DNA of 58,706 nt from an uncultured Christensenella sp. (GTDB lineage: Bacteria; Bacillota; Clostridia; Christensenellales; DTU072): assembly GCA_905210905.1 (NCBI GenBank), contig CAJLYQ010000002.1, forward strand, positions 1 through 58,706. Reading direction: 5' to 3'. The position numbers were made by a program, and so were the translations under genes. Under the pieces are notes generated by a model that was not told where the DNA came from, made no database searches, and saw nothing but the letters and a program-made list of their open reading frames with translations. This document shows positions 6,357 through 58,706 of this stretch, one piece after another. Numbering within the stretch: the first letter of the stretch is position 1; every line of letters starts with the position of its first letter.

Positions 6357-8312
6357 TCAAAGTATCAGACCGTTCTCTCTGAGCACCGACAAAAACTTGT
6401 CTTCGTCCCAAATTTCCACACCGAATTTTTTTGCTTTATCGAGTTTGCTTCCGGCTTCCTCTCCGGCAATAACGAGATTGACGGATTTAGAAACGCTGTC
6501 CGAAGTTTTTCCGCCGAGTTCTTTTATAACTTCCGCCGCCTGCGATCTTTTGAACGCAACGAGTGAACCGGTCAAAACCACGTTTTTACCGCTTAAAACG
6601 CCTTCTTTCTTCTCTTCCGTGCGGATTTTTACGCCTTTTTCGAAAAGTTTTTCTATTTGAGCGGAATTTTCTTCGTCGTCGAAAAACTTGCGTACGTTTT
6701 CCGCCATAATAAGACCGAAATCGTCGAGAGAAACGAGTTCTTCGACGCTTGCCGCTCTGATTTTTTCGAATGATCCGAAATGGTCGGCAAGTTGTTTTGC
6801 CGTTTTCTTCCCGATAGCCGGAATACCCAAAGCAAATACGAACCTGTCAAGGGTTACGTCCTTACTTTTTTCGATTCCGGCAAGTAAATTCGTTATTTTT
6901 TTATCCTTAAAACCGTCTAATTTGAACAATTTTTCGGCGGTAAGTTCGTATAGTTGATACGGATGTTTCAGTCCGAATTCGTTATAAAGTTGCTCTGCGG
7001 TTTTTTCGCTGAAACCGTCTATATCCATACACGATTTTTGCGCAAAATGATCCAAAGTCGCAACGATTGCGGGCGCGCATTTATCGGGATTCGTGCAGTA
7101 CAAAAACGCCCCTTCTTCCTTGACCGGCGCACCGCAGGCAGGACACTTGTCGGGCTTGGGCACGTCAACGGATTCCGGCAACAAAGCGGCTAGCCCCGTT
7201 ATCTCGGGTATTACGTCGTTACTTCTTCTGATGAAAACTCTGGAATGTAACTTTATTCCCTTCTTTAGGATATCGGAATAGTTGTTTAGGGTAGCCCTTT
7301 TAACGGTTACGCCCATAAGATCAACCGGTTCGAGAACGGCAAGCGGATTTAGTTTGCGAGTTCTGGACACCTGCCACACGACGTCGTCGAGAACGGTAGT
7401 AACCTCTTCCGCTTCGAATTTATACGCAAGCGCCCATCTTGGGAATTTCTCGGTAAATCCGAGTTCTTCTCTTATAGCCATCGAGTTGATTTTTAACACC
7501 GCCCCGTCTATCAAAAAATCAAGATCAGGTCGATTTTTTTCAATTTTATCAATTACTTTTTGTGCCTCGTTTTGCGACTTTACAAGCGTAAAAACATCGT
7601 CTGTCAAGAAACCGTTTTCTATTAAAAACGAATGAACTTCTTCTTGCGTTTTGAAAGTTTTACCGGCAGAATAACCGATATTATACGCTACGAAATCGAG
7701 TTTCCTCGCAGCGGTTACCGACGGATCGAGATTTCGAATCGCGCCGGCTACGCCGTTTCGGGCGTTTTTAAGCGGAACAGCCGCCGTTTCGTTATAACTT
7801 TTTAACGAACTCAAACGCATAAGCCCTTCGCCCTGAATTTCTATTTCGCCTTTATACGGGATCGTGAGCGGCACGCTTTTTATCGTTTTTACCTGAGCGG
7901 TAACGAGTTCTCCCGTTATTCCGTCTCCGCGCGTAGCGGCAGAAACGAGCAAACCGTCTTTGTACGTTATTGACAAGGTCAAACCGTCGAATTTATTTTC
8001 TACCGTCATTTCGGGGATAAATCCGAGTTGTTTTTCTATGCGCTGAAAATAGGCGGTAAGTTCTTCACTGCCCTTTGCTTTGTCAAGAGAATACAGTTTA
8101 AGTTTATGCTTATAAGAAACAAATTCTTTAAGCGGCGCGCCGCCTACCCTGTGCGTCGGCGAATCCGGCAACGCTCCGTATTCTTTTTCGAGTTCGACGA
8201 GTTCGTAATACATCGCATCGTATTCGGCGTCCGATACCGTCGGATTGTCGAGTTCGTAATATTCTTTTGCGTATCGATTAAGCAAATCGACGAGTTGGCG
8301 CATTCTTTCCAT
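6357..8312 (-). CDS. ligA: NAD-dependent DNA ligase
   Basis: 651 aa with the KxDG adenylation motif (ENKFDGLT), the Zn finger CPACGAPV..CTNPDKC, and HhH and C-terminal BRCT regions. Confidence 0.96.
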   Translation of the reverse strand: MERMRQLVDLLNRYAKEYYELDNPTVSDAEYDAMYYELVELEKEYGALPDSPTHRVGGAPLKEFVSYKHKLKLYSLDKAKGSEELTAYFQRIEKQLGFIPEMTVENKFDGLTLSITYKDGLLVSAATRGDGITGELVTAQVKTIKSVPLTIPYKGEIEIQGEGLMRLSSLKSYNETAAVPLKNARNGVAGAIRNLDPSVTAARKLDFVAYNIGYSAGKTFKTQEEVHSFLIENGFLTDDVFTLVKSQNEAQKVIDKIEKNRPDLDFLIDGAVLKINSMAIREELGFTEKFPRWALAYKFEAEEVTTVLDDVVWQVSRTRKLNPLAVLEPVDLMGVTVKRATLNNYSDILKKGIKLHSRVFIRRSNDVIPEITGLAALLPESVDVPKPDKCPACGAPVKEEGAFLYCTNPDKCAPAIVATLDHFAQKSCMDIDGFSEKTAEQLYNEFGLKHPYQLYELTAEKLFKLDGFKDKKITNLLAGIEKSKDVTLDRFVFALGIPAIGKKTAKQLADHFGSFEKIRAASVEELVSLDDFGLIMAENVRKFFDDEENSAQIEKLFEKGVKIRTEEKKEGVLSGKNVVLTGSLVAFKRSQAAEVIKELGGKTSDSVSKSVNLVIAGEEAGSKLDKAKKFGVEIWDEDKFLSVLRENGLIL

Positions 8313-11728: not shown

Positions 11729-13120
11729 TTAATCGCGATTCAACTCTTCCGGAACGTTCGGCAGATTAGCAAGTCCGCGCGAGATATCTTCGTCGGTAGG
11801 AATATAATCGCTCATCTCACGGTCGTTATACGCTTTGTATGCTTTAAGGTCGAAATACCCTGTGCCGGTCAAACCGAAAAGAATTACTTTCTTCTCGCCG
11901 GTTTCTTTACACTTAAGCGCTTCGTCTATCGTCGCTTTTATTGCGTGAGAACTCTCCGGCGCGGGCAAAATTCCTTCACACCTTGCAAAGCGTTCCGCCG
12001 CTTCGAAGACTTTAGTCTGTTCTACCGAAACGGCTTCCATATATCCGTCGTGATATAGTTTGCTGAGCGTAGGACTCATACCGTGATATCTTAAACCGCC
12101 TGCATGGTTGGGTGACGGCATAAAACCGCTACCGAGAGTGTACATCTTAGCGAGCGGAGTCATTTTGCCGGTATCACAGTAATCGTATCTGTAAGATCCG
12201 CGTGTAAGCGACGGACAACTTGCCGGTTCTACCGCAATAAACCTATAATCTGCCTCACCGCGTAACTTCTCACCCATAAAAGGTGCGATAAGTCCGCCTA
12301 AATTGCTGCCACCCCCGGCGCAACCGATGATTATATCGGGTTTAACGCCGTATTTATCCAATGCAGTTTTGCACTCCAAGCCTATTATGCTTTGGTGAAG
12401 CATTACCTGATCCAATACGCTTCCGAGAACGTATTTGGAATTCGGTACGCTCGTCGCGCACTCTACCGCTTCGCTTATAGCGCAACCCAAACTACCGCCC
12501 GTTCCGGGAAATTCTTTAAGAATTCGTCTACCTACTTCCGTCGTATCGCTCGGACTGGGAATAACGTTTGCTCCGTACGTTCTCATTACTTCGCGCCTGA
12601 ACGGTTTTTGCTCGCTACTTACCTTAACCATAAAAACGTCAAGCGGAATTTTATAAAAAGCACATGCCATCGAAAGAGCCGTACCCCACTGCCCTGCGCC
12701 GGTTTCGGTGGTTAAGTGCGTTATTCCTTGTTGTTTTGCATAGTAAACCTGCGCGACAGCCGAGTTAAGTTTATGCGACCCGGAAGTATTGTTGCCTTCA
12801 AATTTGTAGTATATTTCGGCAGGAGTATCGAGTTCTTTTTCCAACCAATACGCCCTGACGAGCGGCGACGGACGGAACATCGTGTAAAAGTCTCTTATTC
12901 CTTCGGGTATTTCTATAAATTGCGTGCTTTGGTCAAGTTCTTGCTTAACGAGTTCGTCGCAAAAAATGTGTCCTAAGTCCTCTGCCGTAACCTTTTCAAG
13001 CGTGGCGGGATTAAGATAAGGCGCATGTTTAACTTTCATATCCGCACGCAGATTATACCAGTATCTCGGCATCTCGTCTTCTGTCAGGTAAATCTTTGTC
13101 GGAATGCGTTTGTTTTTCAT
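11729..13120 (-). CDS. trpB: TrpB-like PLP enzyme (tryptophan synthase beta, type 2)
   Basis: 463 aa with the PLP-lysine motif GSHKLNSA. The long N-terminus and overall pattern fit the TrpB2 class. No trpA or other trp genes are adjacent. Confidence 0.85.
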   Translation of the reverse strand: MKNKRIPTKIYLTEDEMPRYWYNLRADMKVKHAPYLNPATLEKVTAEDLGHIFCDELVKQELDQSTQFIEIPEGIRDFYTMFRPSPLVRAYWLEKELDTPAEIYYKFEGNNTSGSHKLNSAVAQVYYAKQQGITHLTTETGAGQWGTALSMACAFYKIPLDVFMVKVSSEQKPFRREVMRTYGANVIPSPSDTTEVGRRILKEFPGTGGSLGCAISEAVECATSVPNSKYVLGSVLDQVMLHQSIIGLECKTALDKYGVKPDIIIGCAGGGSNLGGLIAPFMGEKLRGEADYRFIAVEPASCPSLTRGSYRYDYCDTGKMTPLAKMYTLGSGFMPSPNHAGGLRYHGMSPTLSKLYHDGYMEAVSVEQTKVFEAAERFARCEGILPAPESSHAIKATIDEALKCKETGEKKVILFGLTGTGYFDLKAYKAYNDREMSDYIPTDEDISRGLANLPNVPEELNRD

Positions 13121-13410
13121 TTTTTCTGTTCTCCTTCTCTTTTTTATATGAAAAAACGGCGAATCCGCTTTGGGACGAATTCACCGTGTTGCCACCCAAT
13201 TTCATAGTCTAATCGCTTAAACTACCTTAATAACAGTACTACCATACTGTCTTCCTTTAACGCAGGAACTTACGTCGGAAACTACTACAATTTTCGCTCC
13301 CGCCCTCAATAGTCCATTCAACAAATTTCCGCTGTTCCGTCACACCACCCCGAAACTCTCTGAAAACTTCGATATGTCTACTACTCTATCTCAACGGTTT
13401 GTTAAGTTAT
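13121..13410 (-). promoter_or_regulatory. T-box riboswitch leader, Trp specifier (TGG)
   Basis: Read on the minus strand. Stem I has CAGAGAG..GGTGGTGTGA. The specifier loop is GAA-TGG-A (TGG at 13316..13314). The T-box is AAATTGGGTGGCAACACGG (13200..13182). The terminator is CGGTGAAT..ATTCGCCG+TTTTTT (13186..13151). Confidence 0.85.
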
Positions 13411-43298: not shown

Positions 43299-43524
43299 CG
43301 AACGGAACATAATTCTCGGTCGAAAATAGTTCCGACTGCAGCGTATAGTTTACATTAACAAAACAGCGCAACTCGCTTCGCTCGTCAGGTTTGCGCGCTA
43401 CGCACTGCAAACTTGCGAACCAACGATCATTTTTTTACGTTATTTTCTTTTTGGGTGTCGTTGATTCGCGGTAATCGGGTGCGCCAAACAAAAAAAGACG
43501 AACTTAAGGGTGTTACCATTAGGG

Positions 43525-43559
43525 AAAACAGGCGCAGGCGAATAGCTTGCGCCTGTTTT
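43525..43559 (-). terminator. 12-bp hairpin just downstream of the recombinase genes
   Basis: aaaacaggcgca / tgcgcctgtttt arms with an 11-nt loop. Confidence 0.5.
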
Positions 43560-43568
43560 CTTGCCTTT

Positions 43569-45071
43569 TTACGGTAAATCTATCTCTCCGACGTGCGTTA
43601 GACATATCGTTACCGTTCTTTTATAGCCGTCTTCCGTTTTTACCTTTTCCGAAACGATGACTTTATCGATCAGCAGTCTGACGATTTCGGGCGTTAGTTT
43701 CTTGATTCTGCCCGTTTTGACCACAAGAGAAACGAAATTATTGATGTTATCATTTATCTCGTCGTATCGGTCGATTTCGCTTTGACTGTTTTCAACCGTT
43801 TCTTTCAGTTGCCGTTGCTCCTGCTCATATGCCTCGGACATCAAAGCAAACCGTTCTTCCGTTATCTTGCCCATAACCTTATCTTCATAAAGGCTTTGAA
43901 TGATCTTGTTCAGAGCCTTTATTCTGTTTTCGGCTTCGGATACTTGTCTTGCCTTCTTCGCAACTTCCTTTCTTGACAGCAATCGGGAGTGTTGGATGGC
44001 AATATCGACAAAGTCTCCTTCATGATCGATGACAAAGTCGGAAACTCTTTTTAAGTAACTCAGAACGATTTCTTCAATGGCTTCTACGGTTATCTGATGC
44101 GAAGTGCAGGTCGATTTCTTCTGCTTGCGGTAGGACGAGCAGTTAAAATATTCCTTTTGCTTCATAGTAGATGAGCGGCAGAGATACATTTTCTTTCCGC
44201 AGTCCGCACAGTAAACCATTCCCGAAAACACGTTCATCTCGCCCATCGGCGTCGGTCTTCGTCTGCCTTCGCGTATTTTCTGTACGGTATCATACGTCTG
44301 TTTGTCGATGATCGCTTCCTGCGTATTCTCGAAGGTAACCCATTTAGACGGATCGTTCCATACCTTCTTCTTACACTTATAGGACTTCTTTGTCGTCCGG
44401 AAGTTTACGGTACAGCCCGTATAGTGCGGATTGCTCAGGATTCGTTTTATCGTATCCGAGCACCATAATTCAGGCATGGGTGATGTTGCCGGGTGCTTAA
44501 TGCCGAGTCTGTCGTAATGGCAGATTGGCGTTTCAACTTTTCTTTCGTTGAGAATCCGTGCAATATGCGTCGGACCGAACCCCTGCATACAGAGAGCGAA
44601 AATCTCTTTTACCGTTTTTGCCGCTTCTTCATCGATGATCCATTGTTCCTTGTCGTCGGGGCTTTTCAGATAACCGAAAGGCGGAACAGTACACAGGTGT
44701 TTTCCCGAATTGCCTTTGGAACGGAATACCGCGCGGATCTTCTTGCTTGTGTCCTTTGCGTACCACTCGTTGATGATGTTACGGAATGGGGTAAAATCGT
44801 TGTCTACCTGACTTTCACTGTCCACGCCGTCATTGACCGCGATAAATCTTACGCCCGCTTCGGGAAAGGTTATCTCGGTATACACGCCGACTTTCAGATA
44901 ATCCCTGCCGAGCCTCGACATATCCTTGACAATAATTGTACCGACCTCGCCGGCGTCGACTTTACGCATTAAACGCTGAAAGTCGGGGCGATTGAAGTTC
45001 GTACCCGAATATCCGTCGTCCACAAACGTTTCAAGATTGCGGAAACCGTGTTCTTTTGCATATTTGCTCAA
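43569..45071 (-). CDS. large serine recombinase, N-terminally short or degenerate (TTG start, no catalytic-Ser segment in the callable ORF)
   Basis: 500 aa with [15 protein letters not shown], the Zn ribbon CADCGKKMYLCRS, a coiled coil and a DUF4368-like C-terminus. See the finding on its N-terminus. Confidence 0.8.
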   Translation of the reverse strand: MSKYAKEHGFRNLETFVDDGYSGTNFNRPDFQRLMRKVDAGEVGTIIVKDMSRLGRDYLKVGVYTEITFPEAGVRFIAVNDGVDSESQVDNDFTPFRNIINEWYAKDTSKKIRAVFRSKGNSGKHLCTVPPFGYLKSPDDKEQWIIDEEAAKTVKEIFALCMQGFGPTHIARILNERKVETPICHYDRLGIKHPATSPMPELWCSDTIKRILSNPHYTGCTVNFRTTKKSYKCKKKVWNDPSKWVTFENTQEAIIDKQTYDTVQKIREGRRRPTPMGEMNVFSGMVYCADCGKKMYLCRSSTMKQKEYFNCSSYRKQKKSTCTSHQITVEAIEEIVLSYLKRVSDFVIDHEGDFVDIAIQHSRLLSRKEVAKKARQVSEAENRIKALNKIIQSLYEDKVMGKITEERFALMSEAYEQEQRQLKETVENSQSEIDRYDEINDNINNFVSLVVKTGRIKKLTPEIVRLLIDKVIVSEKVKTEDGYKRTVTICLTHVGEIDLP

Positions 45072-45156
45072 TATTTCTTTTTGATGTACGATGCTGTTGC
45101 TGTCACCTTCCTGTTCGTCGTCGGATGAGTGTACGAGGGGGATATTGGCGTAATCC

Positions 45157-47030
<1,874 letters not shown>

Positions 47031-47351
47031 TTCACTTATTCGGACTATTTTCGAAATTCTATTTCGCGTCCTTATTGCGCTGAATACTATGTTCTCTCTT
47101 CATTGCTTTTCCTCCTCATTCAAAAAAATATGTTTTGGCAAAGCAACGCAAAGAAATACGTTACGGCTTTACTTGTCGGAGTGACACAGTTGGTGAAATT
47201 TTTCGCGAAAATGAACTTAGCTGTAGTAGACTACTGCAAGTGAAATTTTTGCGAAAGTTCATAAAACTCTTATTTCTGTCCGCTTTTTTGCTTTAAGCAG
47301 TAAAAACAATCAAAGACATCTTTTCGATTTCGTTTTATGAACGTAAACCAC

Positions 47352-47588
47352 TCAATCTGTGACGCTCCTTTCGCCGTCTTCTTTCTTTCTCTTCAAGGCT
47401 TCATATCCCTCGCGGATAAGCGTAACCTTTGTGATGCGATTCTCTTGTAGGAAAGCGTTTATCTCTTCAAATAACGGTCTCGGTATCATCGTCCCGAAGT
47501 TGCCGCTGGCTTGCTTTCTCTTCTCTTTCACTTTCTCCTCGTATCTCCTGCGTGCTTTGCGCACAGGGGTATCTTCCTTTCTTTCCAT
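47352..47588 (-). CDS. small basic DNA-binding-like protein (MobC/RHH-like accessory)
   Basis: MERKEDTPVRKARRRYEEKVKEKRK.. from the ATG at 47588, preceded by a GGGAGG RBS. It lies next to the relaxase. Confidence 0.45.
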   Translation of the reverse strand: MERKEDTPVRKARRRYEEKVKEKRKQASGNFGTMIPRPLFEEINAFLQENRITKVTLIREGYEALKRKKEDGERSVTD

Positions 47589-47684
47589 CACAGCCTCCCA
47601 AATATGTAGCGTCCATATCACATTCTTTTACATCGACAAAACGGGAATTATCAGAAACATAACATTTTTTGTTATCCATCGGCA

Positions 47685-47790
47685 AAAGCGGATATATTAT
47701 CTTAGTTTTGTCGACTTCCGCGAAAACGTCGACTACCGTACATCAGTACGCCGACGCTCCGTTTTCTCGGAAAAATAATGCAATCTAACC
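47685..47790 (-). repeat. copy A of a ~105-bp repeat module with a long hairpin
   Basis: The core 47723-47765 matches 52848-52890 at 40/43 positions, with flanking similarity (AAAGCGGAT.. and a T/A-rich tail). Confidence 0.7.
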
Positions 47791-47884
47791 ACTACACAAG
47801 TTTGTTTCGTATCAATACATATTATATCCATCCCTGGCATATTTGTCAAGGTCTATGGGATAGAAAAGTCGATTTACCTCTTAT

Positions 47885-49285
47885 TTATTTGCTCCAATAA
47901 TATTGGGAGCGTCGTTGTTCTTCGGCTTGCGCCTTTTGCTCTTCTTCTTTCCTCTTTTCTTCGATCTCTTCCTCGATGTCTTGCAGTCTGTGCGAAAAGT
48001 CACGTTCCAAGTCGAGTATGCTCGTTGCAAAACTCATAAAGAGCGAATCGAACCTCTTGGCGACGTTCCGTTCCGAGATGGCAAGACTTCGTTTTAGCTT
48101 GTTGTCGTTGACCTCGTACTTCCGGCGCGGGCTACGTTCATAGTGTTCGGCTTTGATAAACTTTGCCGCGTGTAAGACAATGTTCCCCACTCTGCGGTCA
48201 TAGTCTTTCTCCAGTACGTCCACAAGGGTTATCGTATCGGGATCGATCTTGAAGTGATACTTTTCGTCCGTGGCTGTGCCTTCGCATATCTCTTTGAACC
48301 GTTGCCGTATCTCCCCGAACTTCTCACTCACCCGCTCGTCGGCTTTCAACGCTTCACGATCCCTCAAAAAGAGCATCGTAGCGACCTTGTCGATTTTTGC
48401 TCGATAGGGTTGCATTTCTTTTCTTCCGTACTCAAACGGTATCCCCTTGGGTAAATCTTTACAGAGCGATAATAGTTCCTTCTTAATATCGTCTTGGGTA
48501 TACATGGAACCGGCGAACGCCGTTATAGCTCTGAGCCGTCGTAACGCATCGTCCCTTGCATAATGCACTTCGTCCGTCTTGCCCGTAACGTATAAGGATA
48601 ACCGCACGCGCATATTGTCTATGACCTTCTGCTCTATCTTCCCTTTGTGGCGGTATTCCATTTCCTTTTTCCGATACTTGCATTTCGGCTCTTTCTCCCA
48701 AAAGGCGAAGTGAATGTGGTAGTGTTTTTCTCTGTCGAGGTGCAAGGCGCACAGTAAATCCACGTTCTTCGGCTCCAGTCCCATCTCTCTGAAAAACTGT
48801 CCGAAGTTACGTTTGACGAGGCGCATACATTGTTCGGGCGTTTCTATACGGAACGAGTTTTCTTTGTTCAGCGATACGAACCCGTGCCAAATGTTTTTCT
48901 TGCCGTCTTGGGCGCGTTTCTTCATCTCTTCCACCTGAATAGGCGAGAGGAAGCCGTCGCCGTTAAATACGCCGTGGTTCTTCTCGAAATACTCCTGTAC
49001 CGTTTCCGCTTCCTTCCCTTGTCGTTTTTTCCCCGCGTTTATGTATTCGTAGACGTTCTTCTCTCCGGACATATCGAAGAAGGCGCGCTCTTGTCTGTGC
49101 TTCTCGATCTCTTTTTCCGTCGCCCCTTTCTTTAAGGCGTAGGGTGTGTACCTGATGTTAAAAATAACCGGTTGATTACTGATAATAATTTCCTCCTTTT
49201 CATTTTCTCCGTTGTCAAAACGAGGCGGGTTTCCCGCTCGTACGTCCGCCGTCGGGCGGACAAGCAAAAAAGTGTTTTGCAACAA
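47885..49285 (-). CDS. putative conjugative relaxase/mobilization protein
   Basis: 466 aa. The His-triad-like LHLDREKHYHIHFAFWE fits the HxDx3HxH pattern. The start codon is uncertain: a TTG was called, and a strong AAGGAGG RBS lies further downstream before ATT/ATC codons. Confidence 0.6.
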   Translation of the reverse strand: MLQNTFLLVRPTADVRAGNPPRFDNGENEKEEIIISNQPVIFNIRYTPYALKKGATEKEIEKHRQERAFFDMSGEKNVYEYINAGKKRQGKEAETVQEYFEKNHGVFNGDGFLSPIQVEEMKKRAQDGKKNIWHGFVSLNKENSFRIETPEQCMRLVKRNFGQFFREMGLEPKNVDLLCALHLDREKHYHIHFAFWEKEPKCKYRKKEMEYRHKGKIEQKVIDNMRVRLSLYVTGKTDEVHYARDDALRRLRAITAFAGSMYTQDDIKKELLSLCKDLPKGIPFEYGRKEMQPYRAKIDKVATMLFLRDREALKADERVSEKFGEIRQRFKEICEGTATDEKYHFKIDPDTITLVDVLEKDYDRRVGNIVLHAAKFIKAEHYERSPRRKYEVNDNKLKRSLAISERNVAKRFDSLFMSFATSILDLERDFSHRLQDIEEEIEEKRKEEEQKAQAEEQRRSQYYWSK

Positions 49286-49370
49286 AAAATACTTTTTTCT
49301 TATCCTGCTCTAAAAATGCACCGGATAGCCAAGAAAATCATATTTCTTTGCTTGCACGTTTGCTTCGGGT

Positions 49371-50015
49371 TCATCTCGTTTTTTCTCTGAATTTCTCCAC
49401 GATTCCGTACATATTCAGACGTCTGATTTCCTCGTTTTCCTTGATGAATTTGTAAAGTTCATTGAGGTTCACGCCCTCTAAAATCGGATTGTTCTCGTGC
49501 AAGTTTCCCGTGATCTCAGGAAAATCCTCTCGGATCTTTGCAAGCGTCATCGGCGGTTTTTTCTTCTGTCCGCCTTTCTTTCCGCTTTCACTCCGTGCCT
49601 TGCTGATGTCAAACGTCTTCTTGAAAATGTTGAACGCGCCCTGCAATTCGGGCGGCAAGCCTGTCGGCGTAACGCCGTTAAACATATATTCGCACATCGC
49701 TTTCACGTACATTCCGGCGTTCTTGTTATTTACCATCGTCCGGATCATATTGGCGTAGCTCTCGTGGAATGTAAAATGTTTCATCTTCCGATTGAGATAA
49801 TACGGCGTCTTTCCCGCTTTCTCTATCTCTGTCGCGCTTTGTAGCGTTGGATAGATCAACTCCCAAAGTACGTTCGATTGTTCGTCTTTGGACGGAACGT
49901 CTTCCGCTTCATACACGGCGTAATTGCAAATCCGTTTGATAAAGAATCCGGCTTCGTTATCCGATAACTGGCTGATCGCGTCATAGTACAGATCATAAAA
50001 TGTAAATTCTTTCAT
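49371..50015 (-). CDS. hypothetical mobile-element protein (DUF6291-like)
   Basis: MKEFTFYDLYYDAISQL.. from the ATG at 50015, preceded by an AAGGAGG RBS. The domain assignment is from memory only. Confidence 0.45.
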   Translation of the reverse strand: MKEFTFYDLYYDAISQLSDNEAGFFIKRICNYAVYEAEDVPSKDEQSNVLWELIYPTLQSATEIEKAGKTPYYLNRKMKHFTFHESYANMIRTMVNNKNAGMYVKAMCEYMFNGVTPTGLPPELQGAFNIFKKTFDISKARSESGKKGGQKKKPPMTLAKIREDFPEITGNLHENNPILEGVNLNELYKFIKENEEIRRLNMYGIVEKFREKTR

Positions 50016-50449
50016 TGTTTTTCCTCCTTGTTTTAATATCGTTTTGTTGTTGTCGCCGACGTTTAACGACCGTCGGCACGTCATAAGTAACGCATAGGCA
50101 TCACCTCCCGTTTGATTGATTCGCCCACAAAAGGGTATAAAAAAGCCGCCGATATATCCTACCGCCGACTTTGATATTTGTTATTCAGTTGTGGTTGTCG
50201 CTATCTTTATTACATCATCAATTACATCTCCTTGTCAGATTCATAGCATACGAAAACGGAAGCCTTGTGCAGACTCCCGCCTTTGTTGCGTTATTCAGTT
50301 AGTCGAGTAAAACGTTTATTCCCCTCTATAATATATTCGCGGGGCGAATAGATTACGATCGGGTGAGCAATTGTGCAAGCACTTGCTAACCCTCCCATAA
50401 TATAGCCAGGAGAGCGTTGAAAAATCGTACCCCCTGTTAAAAATGTCGA

Positions 50450-51049
50450 TTATTTGCCGAAAAGTGCCTTTAATAAACGTAGCTTAGCCAACTCTTCTTC
50501 AGTTTGTTTTAAGGCGCGCTCGCGCTCTTTTTTACGTTTCTGAGCTTCCTTTTTCTTCTGCCGTTTCTTCTCTTTTTTGGCTTCAATGGCTTGCTGACGG
50601 AGTTTTTCAAGGTTCTCTTCCGCCTTCAGAATAAGTTTGCGGACGGCGCCTTCCGTCACGCCCATCTCTTTGGCTATATCGACTTTCTTCATTACGAAAT
50701 ACTTGAACTTGAAATAGGCTTGTGCTTGCCGCGCCGTGAGCCGCGACTCCAACCACTTCTGTTTTTGCTCAAGTCGCTCGCATTCGCGCCAAGCTAATTC
50801 GTTTTCCCGTTCTTCCGCTTCCTGCTTCTCCCACACGATTTCAATATCCGATTCCGGATCGGCGAACTCAAAACCGGCTTCTTCGAGCATATCTAAAGAA
50901 ACGTGCCGCCGCGTTTCTTTCCTGTTCACTTTCTGCTCGTACTTCTCAAGCTCGTAGAACACTTCCGCAACTTCGTCAGTTACTTCCAATTCTTCTTTAT
51001 GCCCATCGGCAAAGGTATATAATATCGTTTTCATATCCATATTATACAA
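50450..51049 (-). CDS. sigma-70 region-4-like HTH protein
   Basis: 199 aa. LTARQAQAYFKFKYFVMKKVDIAKEMGVTEGAVRKLILKAEENL fits a sigma region 4 HTH. The C-terminal tail is Lys/Glu-rich. Confidence 0.55.
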   Translation of the reverse strand: MYNMDMKTILYTFADGHKEELEVTDEVAEVFYELEKYEQKVNRKETRRHVSLDMLEEAGFEFADPESDIEIVWEKQEAEERENELAWRECERLEQKQKWLESRLTARQAQAYFKFKYFVMKKVDIAKEMGVTEGAVRKLILKAEENLEKLRQQAIEAKKEKKRQKKKEAQKRKKERERALKQTEEELAKLRLLKALFGK

Positions 51050-51180
51050 TTTTTCACAATTGAATTCAATTTTTTATGTCCCGTTATAGGGACAATAAGG
51101 TATATCTCTTCCATTATTTATAATCTAAATCTATAAATTACTTCGGAAAGTTTGAAAAACTGTGGCAATTCAGCGTTTAT

Positions 51181-51399
51181 ATGCGCGATAAAGGTATAAC
51201 CGTGCTTGCCGTGTCGAAAGACGGATATTTCCTCGATGGAAATATCAAACGTGTGGAGTACGACAAAGAACATATCTTTATCCGAGCCACGAAACACGGT
51301 CGACCGGAATTTATTCCGTATGAGGTGGACGGCATAAAATATAATGCCGTAAAGGTGAATGAATCAATTTACATACCCAATAAAGAATCTATTATATAA
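51181..51399 (+). CDS. hypothetical small protein
   Basis: 72-aa ORF, the only plus-strand ORF in the element. It is followed by the hairpin terminator at 51407-51442. Confidence 0.4.
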   Translation: MRDKGITVLAVSKDGYFLDGNIKRVEYDKEHIFIRATKHGRPEFIPYEVDGIKYNAVKVNESIYIPNKESII

Positions 51400-51406
51400 A
51401 AGAACA

Positions 51407-51442
51407 AGCCGGGAGTGAAGACAATTTGCTCTCGGCTTTTTT
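51407..51442 (+). terminator. rho-independent terminator
   Basis: agccgggag / ctctcggct stem plus TTTTTT. Confidence 0.65.
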
Positions 51443-51637
51443 CATATAATCACTAAGTTCAAATATATCCCTTAACCCAGCAAATAACATTGTTTTTTGA
51501 TTTTATCCGTTATTTCAAAAAGTTATTTCAATAGCCTAAATCGCTTGCAAAATTAGTCGGCAGGAAGTGACCGATCATTTTGCCGAGGTCAGCAAATTGA
51601 TAGATATCGCAAAAGGCAACCAAAGAATAGTGACGGA

Positions 51638-51823
51638 TTATAAACCCCACTCGTTACGTTTGTTTTTTCTCACCCGTTTCCCAAGCAATTCACGATTGGT
51701 CTTTTGCAAGAATTTATAAGCGTTTCCATGCTTTAAGTGTCCGTGGTAACTTACGGAAACGATTTTCAAATCCTCTCGTTTCAGTTTCCCGATATCGTAT
51801 AAATATCGCTTGTACTTTACCTT
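51638..51823 (-). other. in-frame continuation of the DGR RT beyond a TAA (C-terminal ~61 codons)
   Basis: The same frame as 51824..52744 continues KVKYKRYLYDIGKLKREDLKIVSVSYHGHLKHGNAYKFLQKTNRELLGKRVRKNKRNEWGL, with a stop at 51640..51638. Confidence 0.75.
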
Positions 51824-52744
51824 TTAAAGTATTCTCTTTTTCGTTTGTTTCAGCGGTTTCTGGACGATTTTTCCGTTCTCGCCGTAAAAGATATGCCATC
51901 CTAAAAAATTGATACCGTTTTTCACTGCGCAAATCTGGGTCTTTCTATTGGGATAAATTTTGTCGCGGACGATCATTTCTTTGATCTTTTCCAAATACTT
52001 GGCGCACTTTTCTTTCTCTTCTCCGCAAAGAAGTATCATATCGTCCATATACCGAAGATAATGCTTTACGCGCAATCTCTCTTTGATGAATCTGTCCACG
52101 TCGCTTAAATACAACAGCGCAAAACATTGGCTCGTCTGATTTCCCATCGGCAAGCCTTTATCCTCTTCTTTATTATAACTGTCGATTATATCGTACAGCA
52201 AACCAAGAACATCATCCCTTTTTACTATTCTTTTCAGTTTTTCTTTCAAAACCGTATGATCGATGCTCGCAAAATACTTTTTCACGTCGATCTGGATAAA
52301 ATATCCGTTTTTTCCGTAATTTTTATAATGTTCCGTCATAAAGCGGCGAAGTCTCTTGATTGCAAAATGCGAGCCTTTATTCTTTCTACAAGCGGCGTTA
52401 TCGTAAATAAGATGACGATCGAGGAGCGGCGTCAGAAAGTTGTCGCAAAAAGTGTGCTGTACGATCCGATCGCGATAATGTATCGCCTGTATCTCCCGTT
52501 CTTTCGAATCATAGATCATAAAAGTGTGATACCCGCCGACCCGGTATTTTCCGTATTTGAGGTCGTAATGAGTCGCCCAAAGATTCTCGGACAGATTCAT
52601 TTCGAACTCTATCACTTCCTTTTTGTGTCTTTTACTTAGTCGCGCCCTTCGGTGCGCTTTATACAAACCGGTAAAACCGATCATAGTATCCCATTCATTC
52701 ATAATGCCAATAAATAAAGTCGTCGGAAAGTGTCCAAAGCGCAT
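51824..52744 (-). CDS. DGR-type reverse transcriptase (ORF ends at an internal TAA)
   Basis: LPMGNQTSQCFALLYL fits the DGR [I/L/M]GxxxSQ signature, the catalytic motif is YMDD, and the N-terminus reads LYKAHRRARLSKRHKKEV. The start is uncertain (Met at 52744, 52702 or 52684). Confidence 0.88.
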   Translation of the reverse strand: MRFGHFPTTLFIGIMNEWDTMIGFTGLYKAHRRARLSKRHKKEVIEFEMNLSENLWATHYDLKYGKYRVGGYHTFMIYDSKEREIQAIHYRDRIVQHTFCDNFLTPLLDRHLIYDNAACRKNKGSHFAIKRLRRFMTEHYKNYGKNGYFIQIDVKKYFASIDHTVLKEKLKRIVKRDDVLGLLYDIIDSYNKEEDKGLPMGNQTSQCFALLYLSDVDRFIKERLRVKHYLRYMDDMILLCGEEKEKCAKYLEKIKEMIVRDKIYPNRKTQICAVKNGINFLGWHIFYGENGKIVQKPLKQTKKRIL

Positions 52745-52810
52745 TTATTTGCGCCGAAGAAAACGGAATAATCAAAAAATAGAAAAACTATATGAAATCG
52801 TTAAAAAAAT

Positions 52811-52915
52811 AAAGCGGATTATAATCATAATTTTCTTCGGCTTTTATAAAAACGTCGACTAACGTACGTCAGTACGCCTACGCTCCGTTTTTATAAAAAA
52901 TCAACACACTTATGC
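52811..52915 (-). repeat. copy B of the ~105-bp repeat module with a long hairpin (in the TR-RT spacer)
   Basis: See copy A. The hairpin is AAAACG..CGTAC-GTCA-GTACG..CGTTTT. Confidence 0.7.
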
Positions 52916-53094
52916 CACTTTGAGTCGTCGGGAACTTTCGTTCGCAAAGAGGTAAAGAAATAATTTCCGTAACTCTTACCGACGACTGAAATTTGTGCCG
53001 TCCTGTGGACGACCCCGGGAAAAGATTCCTTTGCTTCAGAGTACGCAACGAAAGTACGTACCTTCGCCCTCCGACCTTTTCTCTTTCGATAGGA

Positions 53095-53220
53095 GCAAAT
53101 CGGGCACGACCCCATTATTAGTGTTGTTTACGTTGTTGTTGTTATTAGCGTTGCCATTGTTATTGACTTCGCGCGCGTTATTACTATTATTATAGTTCGG
53201 CGAGCGGAGCCACCACCAAC
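53095..53220 (-). repeat. DGR template repeat (TR)
   Basis: 126 bp that align without gaps to 53850-53975. The coding-strand sequence is rich in AAY codons. It lies between avd and the RT. Confidence 0.92.
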
Positions 53221-53297
53221 AGGGGTGGCAAACAAACCGGCATAAACGTGCGTAACCTTTTCCCATATCTACCGCTTCTTTTGCGGATGATACCATA

Positions 53298-53660
53298 TTA
53301 TGCAGAGCCTGTGGCTTGAATCCATTTATTTAAGTATAATAGCGCTTCCGCCACTTGCTTGCTGATCTGTTCGTATTGCTTAGGCAAAATGCACTCCTGT
53401 TCATAGGCAATACCGGAAAAATAATCCAACATGGAAAGAAGCGTTTTCGCCTTCTTTTGATGAATCAGCCTTTCTTCCTTTTCCGTACTGCTGTTTGCCA
53501 AATACTCCTCTTCCAGCGCGTCCAATATATAATTTTGCAATCGTACAACCAACGTAAAACGGAATTTTTTTGGTGATTTTTCCGTCACCGTTATTATGTA
53601 TTTCGCCAAATCTTTCGTCTTGGTGATCACGAACAAATTATTCTTTTTTTGCATTTCCAA
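53298..53660 (-). CDS. avd: DGR accessory variability determinant (Avd-like four-helix-bundle protein)
   Basis: 120 aa with a helical pattern like the 23S-rRNA-IVS/four-helix-bundle family (KSPKKFRFTLVVRLQN..). It is positioned between the VR and the TR. Confidence 0.75.
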   Translation of the reverse strand: MEMQKKNNLFVITKTKDLAKYIITVTEKSPKKFRFTLVVRLQNYILDALEEEYLANSSTEKEERLIHQKKAKTLLSMLDYFSGIAYEQECILPKQYEQISKQVAEALLYLNKWIQATGSA

Positions 53661-53835
53661 AAAAAATTTTCGTCGCGCTTTACGCGCGATCCCTCGCTTC
53701 AGGCAATCGCGGGAAGAGGCGTAAAACGCTTATCTCTTCCCTTGATTGCGGAGTCATGCCTTGCGGCATGGGAGCCCTTTGCGTATCGCCACTGTGAGGC
53801 AATTTGCTTTTTATTGTTTCGGGTTATCCACAGCC

Positions 53836-56800
53836 TCACAGCTTTATACGCAAAGCGGGCACGACCCCATAACTAGGGCTGCTCACGCCGTTGCTGCTAT
53901 CAGCGTAGCCATTGTACTTGACGTCGCGCGCGAGACTACTATAATAACAGCCCGGCGAGCGGAGCCACCACCAACCGTTGCCATAATCGTCTGTAGACGT
54001 ATTCATATATGCGCCGGTAGCTCTGCTGTAATCGCTTGTTTGCATACATCTTGCCGTATCATAATTGCTGTAATCGGCATTAAATCCATACGCGCTGTTC
54101 GTTACTTCCTGCTCGCTGAGCAAGAACACCCTGTCCTGTGTATTCGAGCAAGCGTAACTATTGTTTCCGCTGGTAAATGCCGTTGCGTTGTTGTTCGGGT
54201 TCGTGCTTCTCGCGCTGTTATCTACGGTTGTCAGTTGAATAATTTCCTTTTGCAAATCGTTAAACGCCGTGTTGTAGAACGTGTCGTTCAACCAAGCGCG
54301 GATTTCACTGTTTGCATAGTTATTGCTATTTGAAGCATATCTATGATTTGCGATTATGCTTTCGCATAGGATAAACAACTCTCCGTTCGTTTCCGAAAGA
54401 ATACGCCATTTAATGGGTTCCACCTTAAAGTAGTATACCGTCCCGCTCGTCACGCTTGCTCCGGTAGAGAACATATAACCACTTTGAAACGGTCTTGCCG
54501 AAACTATGGCGTAGTAATATCCGTCGGAACCGAGATAATAACCTTTTTCGTTCGTGGTGTTCGTAATGGTCACGTTATTGGCTTTTATGGTTTGCGGATA
54601 TTCTCCGAAGTAAATATAATTTCCTTCACGCGAATTAGTATTAGTAGTAGACGTAGTTTCGCTCCACTTGGCGTACAGTACGACGTTATCCCCCGTGTAC
54701 GTTATTTCCGTCACTTCGTTATCAAACGTACTTTCCGTATACCAACCGAGGAAGGTATACTCAGTTATTTCTTTCGTTATACGATAATTGCCGTTTCCGA
54801 GATATTCGCTACTGATCGTCGTTTCCGAAGTCACTTTCGCAGGATCGTTCAACGCGATCCCGCCTTCCGCACTCACGATGGTAAAGGTCGAAGGATTGTT
54901 CCCGTTGGTGCCGCCGTTCAGATTGTAGGTCACGGTATAGGTGATGATCGTCGTCTTCGCCGTCAATTGATAGATGCCGGAATCTTTATCCCATGCAAAG
55001 AGGCTATCGCCGTTACTGTCTGTAATAAGAGTATTGTTGTATTGCCATCCGACGAAAGTATAGCCTTCGAACATATTACAAAATGAATAATTATCTCCTT
55101 TATATACCCTTTGCGTGCCTATATATAAACCGTTAAAATACAGTTCAAGTATAGATTGATCGGTATCAAGAACGACCAACGTATATTCTTGGCAGAAATC
55201 ATTGCCGACTCTGTCGGTTGTGGTAATTCTGTAAGTAATGGTTTCGTTTACTTCAAGAGAACCCGAAAGCGTTTCAACGTTAAACAACAATTCTTTATCG
55301 AAACTGTCAAGAACTTTAAAAAGCGCGTAAGGACTATCACCGTTCTGGATATAGTCATAATCTCTCGAATAGACGAGCGTCGGCATATCGTAAATCTTAA
55401 TGCCCGTAATCAATTCGCTCTGTGTGGTATTCCCGAGAGCGTCGGTCGCAACGATATAAAGATTGATCGTGTTTCCGCCCGCAAGGGTATATCCACTTGC
55501 CGCTACGATAGACGTTTCGCAAGTCTCACCGAAACCGTTTACGGCTTGGGCATTGAATTCTTCGCCGACAGACAATTTTCTGATGTTGTTTGCCGTAGTT
55601 GTGTACGTCAACGTGATATCATCACTGGAATACACTTTAACGTTTTGCGAAATCACTTCGTAGTAATTGCCGAGATGATCCGTCGTAGAAAGTTTGAAGG
55701 TTACGACGTTGCCGCCCGCCGCAATCGTACCGCTATTCAGAACAACGCTTACGCTCAAATTATCGTTGAAACTGTCTTTCGCCGTAGCGTTCAACAATGC
55801 ACTGTTTACGGTATCGGTTACTTTCATCGAAGTTTTTTCGGTATCAAACGTGATCGTCGGCGTTCCGTAAATCTTGATGCCCGATATTTCTTTCGTGTTT
55901 ACGTTGCCGAGATGGTCGGTTGCAGTCACAAGATAAGTAAGCGTTGCACCGGAAATCTGCGAGCCTGAAATCAATTCCAAAGTCACGTTGGATAAAGTCT
56001 TTGCAAAACTGTCTTTTGCAACTATACCGAGAGTTTCAAGCGTTATTTCATCTTCAACCTTAAAGTTGGTCGTCGAAGCACCGCTGATAGAGGGCAATCC
56101 ATAAACCTTTACAGAATACGTAACGTAATTCGTATTGCCTTTGCTGTCGGTCGTAGAACTCTTGATAGTGATTGTGTTGCCGCCGGAGAACGTTCCGCTG
56201 TATTGAATGGTGGTAACGTCAAGCTGGGCGCCGAAACTATCTACTGCGGAAACGCCGAATAATGCATTGCCGATAGTATCCGACGCTTTTATATCCACAA
56301 CGTCGATATTCCGTGTAATAACGGGTGTACCGTAAACTTTCACGTTCGGTATTTCAACTTCGGTCTCATTACCCGTTTTATCGGTCGTGGAAATAACGAC
56401 GGTAACGATATCACCGCCATTATATGTACCTTCTTTTACCGAAACGTTGACAGCCACGGCATCACCGAGAGTATCAATCGCGCTTGCGCCGAAAAGCGAA
56501 GCGTTGATCGTATCGGACATATTGAAATAGTCTTTTTCGGTGTTGTATGTAAGCGTAGGCGCGCCGTAAACGTTGATATTCGATATCGTTTCAACAGCAT
56601 AGATATCGTAAAGTCCCATAGCGACCAATCTTACGGTTATCTTGCCGCCAACGACTTTTGAACCGCCTGTAATTTGTGCCGTTACTTCAACAGGATTTCC
56701 GTCGGTATCCACTGCGGTCGCACTGAACGTTTCGGCGACTATTGCATCGTTAATACTGATTTCCGTCCTCTTATTGCAAGTTAAAGAAACATCATAATCA

Positions 56801-58578
56801 ATCCATTTTGCATACAAGGTAATGTCTGCTGCCTGCATTGTAGAGAAGACGTATTCAGTCGTCAAAGAACTGTCAAACCAACCCACGAAGGATTTTTCTT
56901 CAAGCGTAGGTTTAACAGGCGCGGTTACCGCCGTGCCGTAATCTTGCGTGATGGGAGCAACGTTGCTTCCGCCGTTGGAAACGAATGTAATCGTGTATTG
57001 GTTGACACTCCATTTTGCCGTATAAACAATACTTTCTTCGGGCATTGTGAAAGTGTAGGACAGATTGTTCGTCAACAATTCGTCCCCGTCAAACCAACCA
57101 ATCCAAGTATAGCCGACGTTCGTTGTTGCAGTTATGGTCTTGCTTGTTCCGGCAGTCACGTTTGTATTGTCATAAGCGGAAACCGTGCCGGCGTTTGCAA
57201 TATTCTTTTCGGTAGTCAAGGTATAAGCAATCCATTTAGCGTAAAGCGTTGTATTTGCCGCTTTATCCCAAACTTTTACGCTGTCACCGTTTTTATCGGT
57301 ATATTGCGTTCCCGTTCCGCCGAGTCCATCGTACCAACCGGCAAAGGTATAACCTTCTTTTTCGCAATCGGTTGAAAGAGTAAAGGCAGAATCGTAAGTA
57401 ACGTTTTGGGTAATCGCCGCAACGCCGGAACCGGTCGCTTTACCACCGGCAGCAGGTGTAGCCGCACCGGACATACAAAGTGTAAGAGTTATACTACTAC
57501 CGCTATAAGCGCATGGTGCAATATAATACAATATTCCTGCCGTTACGGAATAGGTAATGCTGAAATTATTACCGTTTCCGCTGTCATTGTCTGATTTTAA
57601 CCAAGACTTGCTACTGTTATATAAATATCCGTAGCTGTCACTACTTCCGGTAGAATACAATGTAATGTTTCCACTGGTTAAAGGAACAAACGCATAGTAT
57701 TTATATGAAGTCGTCCTTGATTTAGAAGGTGCGGAAATACCTGAAATACTTCCGTTCAAACTCAATACACCTGCTCCGCTATACGATATCCACTTCGCAT
57801 AAACGGTCGTATCTCTCGTTACGGTAGCCGTAAAGTCAAACAAAGTAGAACAACTGCTTGTTGTATACCAGCCGCCAAAGACGTAACCGCTTCTCGTTGG
57901 AATGCTCGGATACGTCAAGCCAGTTGTGGTCGTAACTGTTTGCGAAGGAATACTTCCGCTTGCGCCGTTCAAGTTAAAGGAAACCGTATAAACGGGATCA
58001 AGATCAACATAAGTTTCTGTTTCGCTCAAAGTAACAGTATACGTATTTGCAGTCCATTTTGCGTAGAGAATAACGACGTCGTTATTAACGGAAGACAAGT
58101 TGCTCACGCTTTGTCCGTTCGTATAAGACGTTCCTGTTCCGTCCGAATTAGTCGTCCAACCGGCAAACGTATATCCCATTCTTGTATATGCGTTGGTCGT
58201 TAAGGCTTTCGACGCGTCATAAGTATACGTTTCATTGCTCATCGAACCGGACGTAGCATCGTTTCCGTCAAACCTTACCTGATAAGTTATTGCCTGCCAA
58301 TTTGCATAAAGCGTTGTTGCAGAAGTCTTATCCCAATTAGCCGCACTCGTCAGATCTGCGTTGTAATACTTTTTACCACCGCTTGAAGAGTCAAAGTAAC
58401 CCAAGAAAGTATAGCCCGTTTTCGTTGGGATTGTAGTAATAACAGGCATAGCGGAATCATATGTCGCAGAAACATTGCTTTGCGTTCCCGTTCCACTATT
58501 TGCATTGAAAGATATGTCATAATTATTTGCAGTCCATTTCGCATAGAGAATAACAACTGCGTTATTGACGGAAGACAA
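53836..58578 (-). CDS. DGR target: giant repeat-rich surface-type protein (Listeria-Bacteroides repeats, Ig-like tandem modules, C-terminal DUF6273/CLec-type domain with VR)
   Basis: 1580 aa called from a TTG. The frame is open up to the TGA at 58656..58654. Repeats of GYTFAGW..LYAKW are present. The C-terminus reads YFGEYPQ..EPIKWRIL..IRAWLN..WWWLRSP..GVVPAL. Confidence 0.85.
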   Translation of the reverse strand: MSSVNNAVVILYAKWTANNYDISFNANSGTGTQSNVSATYDSAMPVITTIPTKTGYTFLGYFDSSSGGKKYYNADLTSAANWDKTSATTLYANWQAITYQVRFDGNDATSGSMSNETYTYDASKALTTNAYTRMGYTFAGWTTNSDGTGTSYTNGQSVSNLSSVNNDVVILYAKWTANTYTVTLSETETYVDLDPVYTVSFNLNGASGSIPSQTVTTTTGLTYPSIPTRSGYVFGGWYTTSSCSTLFDFTATVTRDTTVYAKWISYSGAGVLSLNGSISGISAPSKSRTTSYKYYAFVPLTSGNITLYSTGSSDSYGYLYNSSKSWLKSDNDSGNGNNFSITYSVTAGILYYIAPCAYSGSSITLTLCMSGAATPAAGGKATGSGVAAITQNVTYDSAFTLSTDCEKEGYTFAGWYDGLGGTGTQYTDKNGDSVKVWDKAANTTLYAKWIAYTLTTEKNIANAGTVSAYDNTNVTAGTSKTITATTNVGYTWIGWFDGDELLTNNLSYTFTMPEESIVYTAKWSVNQYTITFVSNGGSNVAPITQDYGTAVTAPVKPTLEEKSFVGWFDSSLTTEYVFSTMQAADITLYAKWIDYDVSLTCNKRTEISINDAIVAETFSATAVDTDGNPVEVTAQITGGSKVVGGKITVRLVAMGLYDIYAVETISNINVYGAPTLTYNTEKDYFNMSDTINASLFGASAIDTLGDAVAVNVSVKEGTYNGGDIVTVVISTTDKTGNETEVEIPNVKVYGTPVITRNIDVVDIKASDTIGNALFGVSAVDSFGAQLDVTTIQYSGTFSGGNTITIKSSTTDSKGNTNYVTYSVKVYGLPSISGASTTNFKVEDEITLETLGIVAKDSFAKTLSNVTLELISGSQISGATLTYLVTATDHLGNVNTKEISGIKIYGTPTITFDTEKTSMKVTDTVNSALLNATAKDSFNDNLSVSVVLNSGTIAAGGNVVTFKLSTTDHLGNYYEVISQNVKVYSSDDITLTYTTTANNIRKLSVGEEFNAQAVNGFGETCETSIVAASGYTLAGGNTINLYIVATDALGNTTQSELITGIKIYDMPTLVYSRDYDYIQNGDSPYALFKVLDSFDKELLFNVETLSGSLEVNETITYRITTTDRVGNDFCQEYTLVVLDTDQSILELYFNGLYIGTQRVYKGDNYSFCNMFEGYTFVGWQYNNTLITDSNGDSLFAWDKDSGIYQLTAKTTIITYTVTYNLNGGTNGNNPSTFTIVSAEGGIALNDPAKVTSETTISSEYLGNGNYRITKEITEYTFLGWYTESTFDNEVTEITYTGDNVVLYAKWSETTSTTNTNSREGNYIYFGEYPQTIKANNVTITNTTNEKGYYLGSDGYYYAIVSARPFQSGYMFSTGASVTSGTVYYFKVEPIKWRILSETNGELFILCESIIANHRYASNSNNYANSEIRAWLNDTFYNTAFNDLQKEIIQLTTVDNSARSTNPNNNATAFTSGNNSYACSNTQDRVFLLSEQEVTNSAYGFNADYSNYDTARCMQTSDYSRATGAYMNTSTDDYGNGWWWLRSPGCYYSSLARDVKYNGYADSSNGVSSPSYGVVPALRIKL
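53850..53975 (-). repeat. DGR variable repeat (VR) within the target gene's 3' end
   Basis: It differs from the TR at 24 positions, 23 of which correspond to A in the TR coding strand. Confidence 0.92.
55170..56800 (-). repeat. about seven tandem ~78-aa Ig-like coding modules inside the target gene
   Basis: The periodic protein pattern is ..(V/I)K(V/I)YG(T/A/L)P..(S/T)D(T)(I/V)N..L..(A/V)(K/V)DS(F)..; coordinates are approximate. Confidence 0.6.
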
Positions 58579-58706
58579 ATTACTTACATTCTGACCATTC
58601 GTATAAGATGTACCAGTTCCGTCCGCATTAGTCGTCCATGAAACGAAGCTGTATCAATTTGTCAATGCGTACAAATTCTTGAAATGTTACTTGAAATACT
58701 ACGAGT

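Follow-up and report, generated by a model that had tools for sequence, protein, structure and literature searches.

The reverse transcriptase (RT) gene of this locus is most likely interrupted by a recent nonsense substitution, in which a CAA glutamine codon in the region encoding the thumb has become TAA in an otherwise complete DGR, leaving the element frozen. The window, by which we mean the whole stretch of Christensenella sp. DNA analyzed here (58,706 nucleotides), carries the RT on its minus strand as an ORF from 52744 to 51824, which reads ..KQTKKRIL and then stops at TAA (51826..51824). Past this stop, 61 sense codons follow in the same frame (51823..51641, KVKYKRYLYDIGKLKREDLKIVSVSYHGHLKHGNAYKFLQKTNRELLGKRVRKNKRNEWGL) until a second TAA at 51640..51638. 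A preliminary, sequence-only reading had described an RT split in this way, and both its coordinates and its translation proved exact. An open continuation of 61 codons has a chance of ∼3% at the base composition of the window (estimated from ∼0.055 stops per codon), and it is because of its homology, beyond this low chance, that we regard the tail as real RT sequence.

The part of the RT upstream of the stop matches Pfam RVT_1 (E 4.6e-18) and contains both the DGR-type MGNQTSQ motif and the catalytic YMDD. In phmmer it matches Bordetella bRT (PDB 8ub7) with E 2.5e-36. An SQ in motif 4, a YxDD motif and bRT as the closest solved structure together place the enzyme in the DGR clade; the SQ dipeptide has been used as a criterion for DGR RTs (PMC3521204). 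The bRT match and the two motifs thus confirm the initial assignment of the gene as a DGR RT.

Joined across the stop, the RT sequence matches 3263 database proteins at E ≤ 1e-10, and nearly all of the best 120 of these are 330–365 aa long. Full-length homologs span ∼330–460 aa (most 330–365), and their alignment crosses the stop and enters the tail. The tail alone aligns with residues 294–342 of the nearest full-length relative, P0001, at 67% identity over 49 aa (E 2e-20), and with the family profile at an hhalign probability of 97.4%. Had DGR RTs of this clade naturally ended at ..KKRIL, as the sequence-only reading allowed, the tail would have no such homology; the homologs instead align past that point. 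A 58-member family profile aligns with bRT from residues 10 to 321 of 328 (E 7.5e-54). The tail carries a motif with the family consensus SYxGxLxxGN, which falls on ASWSGHAQWAD of bRT (the ASWSGH motif) and whose Ser318 is invariant among the 57–58 homologs of alignments A2 and A3. The “SxGH” C-terminal motif picked out earlier is therefore real. On the strength of these alignments, the 61 downstream codons are genuinely homologous to the C-terminal thumb of DGR RTs.

P0001, which is 85% identical, stood in for the window RT in structure prediction. Its AlphaFold2 model (pLDDT 92, pTM 0.87) superimposes on bRT (8ub7_A) with TM scores of 0.82/0.87, over 327 alignment columns for a chain of 328 residues. 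The model forms three thumb helices, comprising residues 285–303, 309–323 and 329–339, and the residue equivalent to the stop, Q293, lies within the first of them. By this model, the truncated RT would keep its N-terminal extension, fingers and palm and lose most of the thumb, in agreement with the earlier suggestion of a product without its C-terminal part.

In most of the 22 homologs aligned with the RT (alignment A1), the protein starts at the position of Met15 of the longest ORF (ATG 52702, MNEWDT..); longer N termini are called in two, P0008 and P0029. Because the homologs start at Met15 and the codons upstream of it sit in an insert (see further results below), the truncated product is probably 292 aa long, rather than 306, and the ancestral protein was 354 aa. 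RT translation probably does not include the 14 upstream codons. The joined sequence does have a normal DGR RT length, as had been proposed, although the 306 aa given for the truncated product and the ∼353–367 aa given for the joined one become 292 and 354 aa. What remains is not an intact RT ORF, since the TAA at codon 293 of 354 takes away most of the thumb. For annotation, the 306-aa protein in public gene calls is best regarded as the truncated product of a pseudogene whose true RT was 354 aa long.

Table 1. Coordinates of the DGR, its RT gene and the surrounding element in the window
Feature	Position	Strand	Description
DGR-bearing integrative element	43505..58706	.	at least 15.2 kb, runs off the window
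Two tandem large serine recombinase genes	43569..45071, 45157..46842	-	Resolvase + Recombinase + Zn_ribbon_recom + DUF4368
Stranded in-frame RT tail	51638..51823	-	61 codons + original stop TAA 51640..51638; rest of thumb helix 1, helices 2 and 3 (..SVSYHGHLKHGNAYKF..)
Premature TAA in RT gene	51824..51826	-	codon 293 from ATG 52702, codon 307 from ATG 52744
RT N-terminal extension, fingers, palm and 8 residues of thumb helix 1	51827..52702	-	292 codons
Codons upstream of RT, within longest ORF	52703..52744	-	14 codons, non-homologous; inside strain-specific 205-nt insert
AT-rich segment between TR-proximal spacer and RT start	52718..52931	-	205 nt, flanked by 9-bp direct repeat
Template repeat (TR)	53095..53220	-	126 nt, 43 adenines
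Avd accessory gene	53298..53660	-	120 aa if started at TTG, 118 aa if started at ATG 53654
Variable repeat (VR), 3′ end of target gene	53850..53975	-	126-nt repeat
DGR target gene	53836..58578	-	1580 aa; Flg_new repeats + C-terminal DUF6273 domain carrying VR

The remainder of the DGR cassette is complete, with the gene order target-avd-TR-RT on the minus strand. The avd gene adjoins TR and matches Pfam bAvd with E 1.4e-9 and 38.9 bits, slightly below the 40-bit gathering score; an identical avd gene is marked bAvd in public gene calls too. VR falls within the last 50 codons of the target gene, at its 3′ end. Of the 43 adenines in TR, 23 are changed in VR; the sole other mismatch, a T>G, sits where the homology ends on its 3′ side. 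Because the differences are confined to adenines, mutagenic retrohoming clearly operated in the past. By descent and layout the locus is a DGR, but with most of the RT thumb removed it probably no longer functions. In the same region, an 86-aa “protein” with DUF6273 hits in public gene calls (53036..53296, minus strand) corresponds to TR read as an ORF (..WWWLRSPNYNNSNNAREVNNNGNANNNNNVNNTNNGVVP..).

The nature of the lesion is indicated by the nearest RT relative, found in a Clostridia MAG (GCA_045601385.1; L003, also retrieved as L005) and 85% identical in amino acid and 87% in DNA sequence. At the aligned stop site this relative reads CTT CAA AAG, and the window reads CTT TAA AAG, a difference of one C-to-T transition. 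The stop column of alignment A1 holds Q, E, A, D, K or T in the full-length homologs, always a sense codon. A comparison with orthologs, suggested at the outset as a check on the stop, therefore yields a sense codon at this site and CAA in the closest case. A single-base difference from an ortholog, followed by a downstream frame that is intact and homologous, is the pattern of a recent nonsense pseudogene. Protein-seeded locus searches returned only this relative and a distant viral locus (L006, 38% identity), with none from the JGI metagenomes. The 30-nt stop context, searched with any base (N) allowed as the first letter of the stop, gave no exact-pattern match in the viral, genome and JGI metagenome collections.

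The tail has accumulated no extra decay. Comparison of the window RT with L003 gives a dN/dS of 0.087 for the part upstream of the stop and 0.096 for the part downstream, the latter a weak estimate from 53 codons with saturated dS (2.4). With more distant homologs as outgroup, the tail has 8 lineage-specific changes in the window and 9 in P0001, and all of its conserved residues in alignment A1 are retained. Because the tail shows no excess of change and TR and VR have no non-adenine mismatches apart from that at the edge, the lesion is evidently recent by these sequence measures. An intact tail with low dN/dS would also be expected from continued selection acting through readthrough, a possibility weighed below. 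Among the three explanations originally offered, namely a recent nonsense mutation, a sequencing or assembly error and regulated readthrough, the first is favored by the CAA in the nearest relative, the adenine-only TR/VR differences and the undecayed tail.

The lesion is a single base, and could in principle be an assembly or sequencing artifact, or a minority variant that entered the consensus, in which case the real gene would have CAA and the DGR would be intact. The same TAA is present, however, in a 52.5 kb contig from a human gut metagenome (L001; ENA ERZ916494). This contig differs from the window by 2 substitutions elsewhere over 12,883 nt, so the two do not simply repeat one consensus. 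Three contigs (NCBI, ENA and Logan) are on record with exactly the 306-aa product; they are perhaps not independent samples, and the contigs sharing the TAA could be re-assemblies of one sample or host. Short-read consensus sequences seldom contain substitution errors. An assembly error, and an artifact of any of these kinds, is accordingly quite unlikely.

We also considered functional leaky termination, in which regulated or basal readthrough of the UAA would supply a little full-length RT and keep the DGR active at a reduced rate. The state of the tail is compatible with this, since it is intact, keeps all of its conserved residues and shows no relaxation of constraint. DGRs, moreover, need very little RT activity, with retrohoming frequencies of ∼1e-5 (PMC12875486), and an unrelated DGR RT (L004) also has in-frame TAAs no more than 6 codons from the same position. 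Against this, the stop is lineage-specific, with a sense codon in every full-length A1 homolog, rather than conserved as programmed readthrough would have it. TAA is also the commonest terminator in the window, ending 28 of 42 long ORFs (TGA 9, TAG 5). UAA is recognized by both class I release factors, and conspecific contigs carry a gene for one of them, either RF1 or RF2 (PCRF and RF-1 domains). No tRNA gene, and hence no suppressor tRNA, was found in the window. The stop is followed by A, neither a leaky context nor one with a stimulatory structure: the RNA from 51860 to 51700 (161 nt) folds no better than its shuffles (z = −1.16; 29 of 200 shuffles as good). Rfam gave no match in the DGR region, and a promoter and terminator scan together with Rfam found nothing specific to the RT region.

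The coincidence of position with L004 is itself weak, because K, Q and E codons one step from TAA abound there and because a score-ranked search mostly picks up late truncations. The two stops of L004 and its non-adenine TR/VR mismatches point to decay rather than regulation. In known programmed readthrough, such as the UAG of MuLV gag-pol or the leaky UGA of Q-beta A1, a stop likewise stands between a functional N-terminal product and a conserved in-frame extension. Those stops are conserved among relatives and are UAG or UGA codons with leaky surroundings, with a stimulatory pseudoknot in addition in MuLV, whereas the stop in the window is a UAA, unique to its lineage and without notable downstream structure. 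A literature search for DGRs and readthrough returned nothing relevant. Regulated readthrough, as first suggested, is thus unsupported, and leaky termination of either kind is very unlikely.

Two further candidates were rejected. Recoding of TAA as a sense codon is inconsistent with its use at the end of 28 of the 42 long ORFs, with the full length of the housekeeping genes in the window and with the lack of a tRNA gene there. Frameshifting or slippage at CTTTAAAAG was discarded since the tail can be reached without a change of frame and the T-TTA-AAA heptamer lies out of register.

Given a nonsense substitution, translation would end at the TAA to give a product of ∼292 aa with only 8 residues of thumb helix 1. 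Judging from the bRT structure, such a thumb-less enzyme would be unable to make cDNA; without cDNA, mutagenic retrohoming would have stopped and the present VR sequence would be fixed. Inactivity is expected because the bRT thumb touches the template:primer duplex, and because the “Thumb Ring” RNA, mutation of which reduces cDNA synthesis, encircles this domain (Handa et al. preprint, doi 10.1101/2023.10.23.563531). A literature search for a C-terminal truncation series of bRT returned no usable data. Most likely, the element was switched off recently.

The lesion could be real and the DGR nevertheless not frozen, if a thumb-less or split RT were active or a second DGR RT acted in trans. The second piece of a split RT, next to the N-terminal one, could be a 43-aa peptide over thumb helices 2 and 3, whose ORF begins with TTG at 51769 and has GAGAGGA upstream; gut bacteria often have several DGRs. 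However, the GAGG lies only 2 nt from this TTG, too close for normal initiation, and thumb helix 1 would still be absent; owing to this SD spacing, we judged re-initiation at TTG 51769 to be unlikely. DGR RTs know their own spacer RNA via specific contacts (doi 10.1101/2023.10.23.563531), and because of this specificity help in trans is not expected unless the other RT is closely related. The VRs of the two contigs compared are identical, which may also argue against continuing activity. We regard an unfrozen DGR as the least likely of these alternatives.

Relatives of the element have lost their RTs in other ways. In L002 (Logan SRR23253344), RT homology stops after codon 212, before the YMDD, at positions 943/944. 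In L007 (Logan SRR17241636, 16 kb), it stops after ∼codon 104, at 7678/7679, as it does in P0122 (ENA). These three RTs are 92–98% identical to the window RT, and unrelated genes follow the break; short Logan contigs may be chimeric, but the L007 junction is also present in the independent ENA contig. The sister elements keep TR (1–2 bases different) and Avd, the same 118-aa Avd being found in L007/L008, L009 and L010. RT decay thus looks recurrent in this element lineage, whether by neutral erosion or by selection that fixes a VR variant.

A more distant DGR RT, that of L004 from another MAG (NCBI GCA_040767345.1, 4001..5030), is 59% identical to the window RT and has two in-frame TAAs (..LAEL*KT*LTSK..), 3 and 6 codons after the position of the window stop. 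Its thumb tail is still recognizable (..CSYLGYLACANAF..), and its TR and VR differ by 17 A-to-N and 4 non-adenine mismatches. By these mismatches L004 is evidently an older decayed DGR, and the lesion in the window is recent by comparison.

The window and its three close relatives thus contain three RT lesions, a nonsense codon at 293 and truncations after codon 212 and ∼codon 104, with target, Avd and TR kept. This raises the possibility that RT loss in the lineage is recurrent and selected, rather than accidental, or else that the TAA allele is a leaky, low-dose RT, although we find either rather doubtful. The three-lesion pattern would fit a selection that disables the mutator time and again and so preserves a VR variant that is useful (“locking-in”). 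Considered together, the data are best read as ordinary recent pseudogenization of the RT gene in a DGR that is carried by an integrative element of a Clostridia bacterium from the human gut. The locus would then be one further DGR caught just after the loss of its mutator, and opens no new mechanism. With its differently broken sisters, it could form a small natural series in which to study how, and how often, gut DGRs switch off.

The window is a further example of a situation published in 2012. Schillinger et al. (DiGReF; PMC3521204, Fig. 4A) described a DGR RT of Ruminococcus gnavus ATCC 29149 cut by a nonsense mutation, as well as other DGR RTs cut by an IS insertion or a frameshift, with adenine-only TR/VR differences, and read these as recent inactivation or possible sequencing error. 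Like the window, the R. gnavus DGR has a premature stop in its RT ORF, an intact TR/VR pair and adenine-only differences. It is a different element in a different host, that of the window belonging to an uncultured gut Clostridia MAG lineage. Beyond the R. gnavus case, here an ancestral CAA is inferred, the stop is placed in thumb helix 1 and independent sister lesions are seen.

The DGR of Bordetella phage BPP-1, whose bRT-Avd-TR RNA complex is represented by PDB 8ub7, has the same target-avd-TR-RT order. Its bRT shares the fold of P0001 (TM scores as given above) with 29% identity in the Foldseek structural alignment. The S-[WY]-x-G-H thumb motif is common to BPP-1 and the window, as are adenine-specific TR-to-VR differences and a GC-rich stretch at the 3′ end of VR. 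In contrast, the BPP-1 target is the Mtd tail fiber, and that of the window is a surface-type protein of Flg_new and DUF6273 domains. The BPP-1 DGR resides on a phage, whereas that of the window is on a serine-recombinase integrative element and has an interrupted RT gene.

Immediately upstream of the RT, the 205-nt AT-rich segment is flanked by a 9-bp direct repeat (CCGACGACT) at 52931..52923 and 52726..52718 and contains nested inverted repeats, of 13 bp (52898..52886 with 52854..52842) and 10 bp (52840..52831 with 52763..52754). It is not present in the relatives L002, L003 and L007. The segment resembles a small insertion that duplicated its target site. Because it pushes away what would otherwise directly precede the RT start codon, it may represent a second DGR lesion. 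A 43-nt copy of its hairpin core, 93% identical, lies at 47723..47765, between the serine recombinase genes and a 466-aa ORF (47885..49285), so that the motif is repeated within the element.

The first 43.5 kb of the window are ordinary chromosome, with PGK, iPGM, class I LysRS, hydrogenase and PcrA genes. Three conspecific contigs (L011–L013), 99.7–99.8% identical, match the window only to 43504. They carry tsaD-GNAT-lysS without the element, and past 43504 run into tsaD, prfB-like and secA genes. In the larger conspecific set, L011–L013 together with L016–L020, identity is 99.1–99.8% and the match likewise extends only up to 43504. Because these contigs match only to that position and have no insertion, we infer that the DGR rides on a strain-specific insertion adjoining GNAT/lysS, with the first serine recombinase gene at its edge. 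L017, L018 and L020 stop at most a few tens of bases from the 43504/43505 junction, and L016 ends ∼160 nt before it.

The cargo of the element includes genes for a DUF6291 protein and for a protein whose match to sigma-70 region 4 is weak and below threshold. In the first recombinase (500 aa), the Resolvase match begins at profile position 25, and the protein may be N-terminally shortened or mis-started. Both long DGR contigs end ∼130–170 nt upstream of the target start (58579..58706 in the window, 1..166 in L001). Such ends point to a repeat, or to a junction that varies among strains, and may mark where the element ends on its other side. In the chromosomal part, a T-box leader (Rfam RF00230, 119.5 bits) is found at 13168..13403 on the minus strand, upstream of a gene for a PLP-dependent enzyme (13120..11729).
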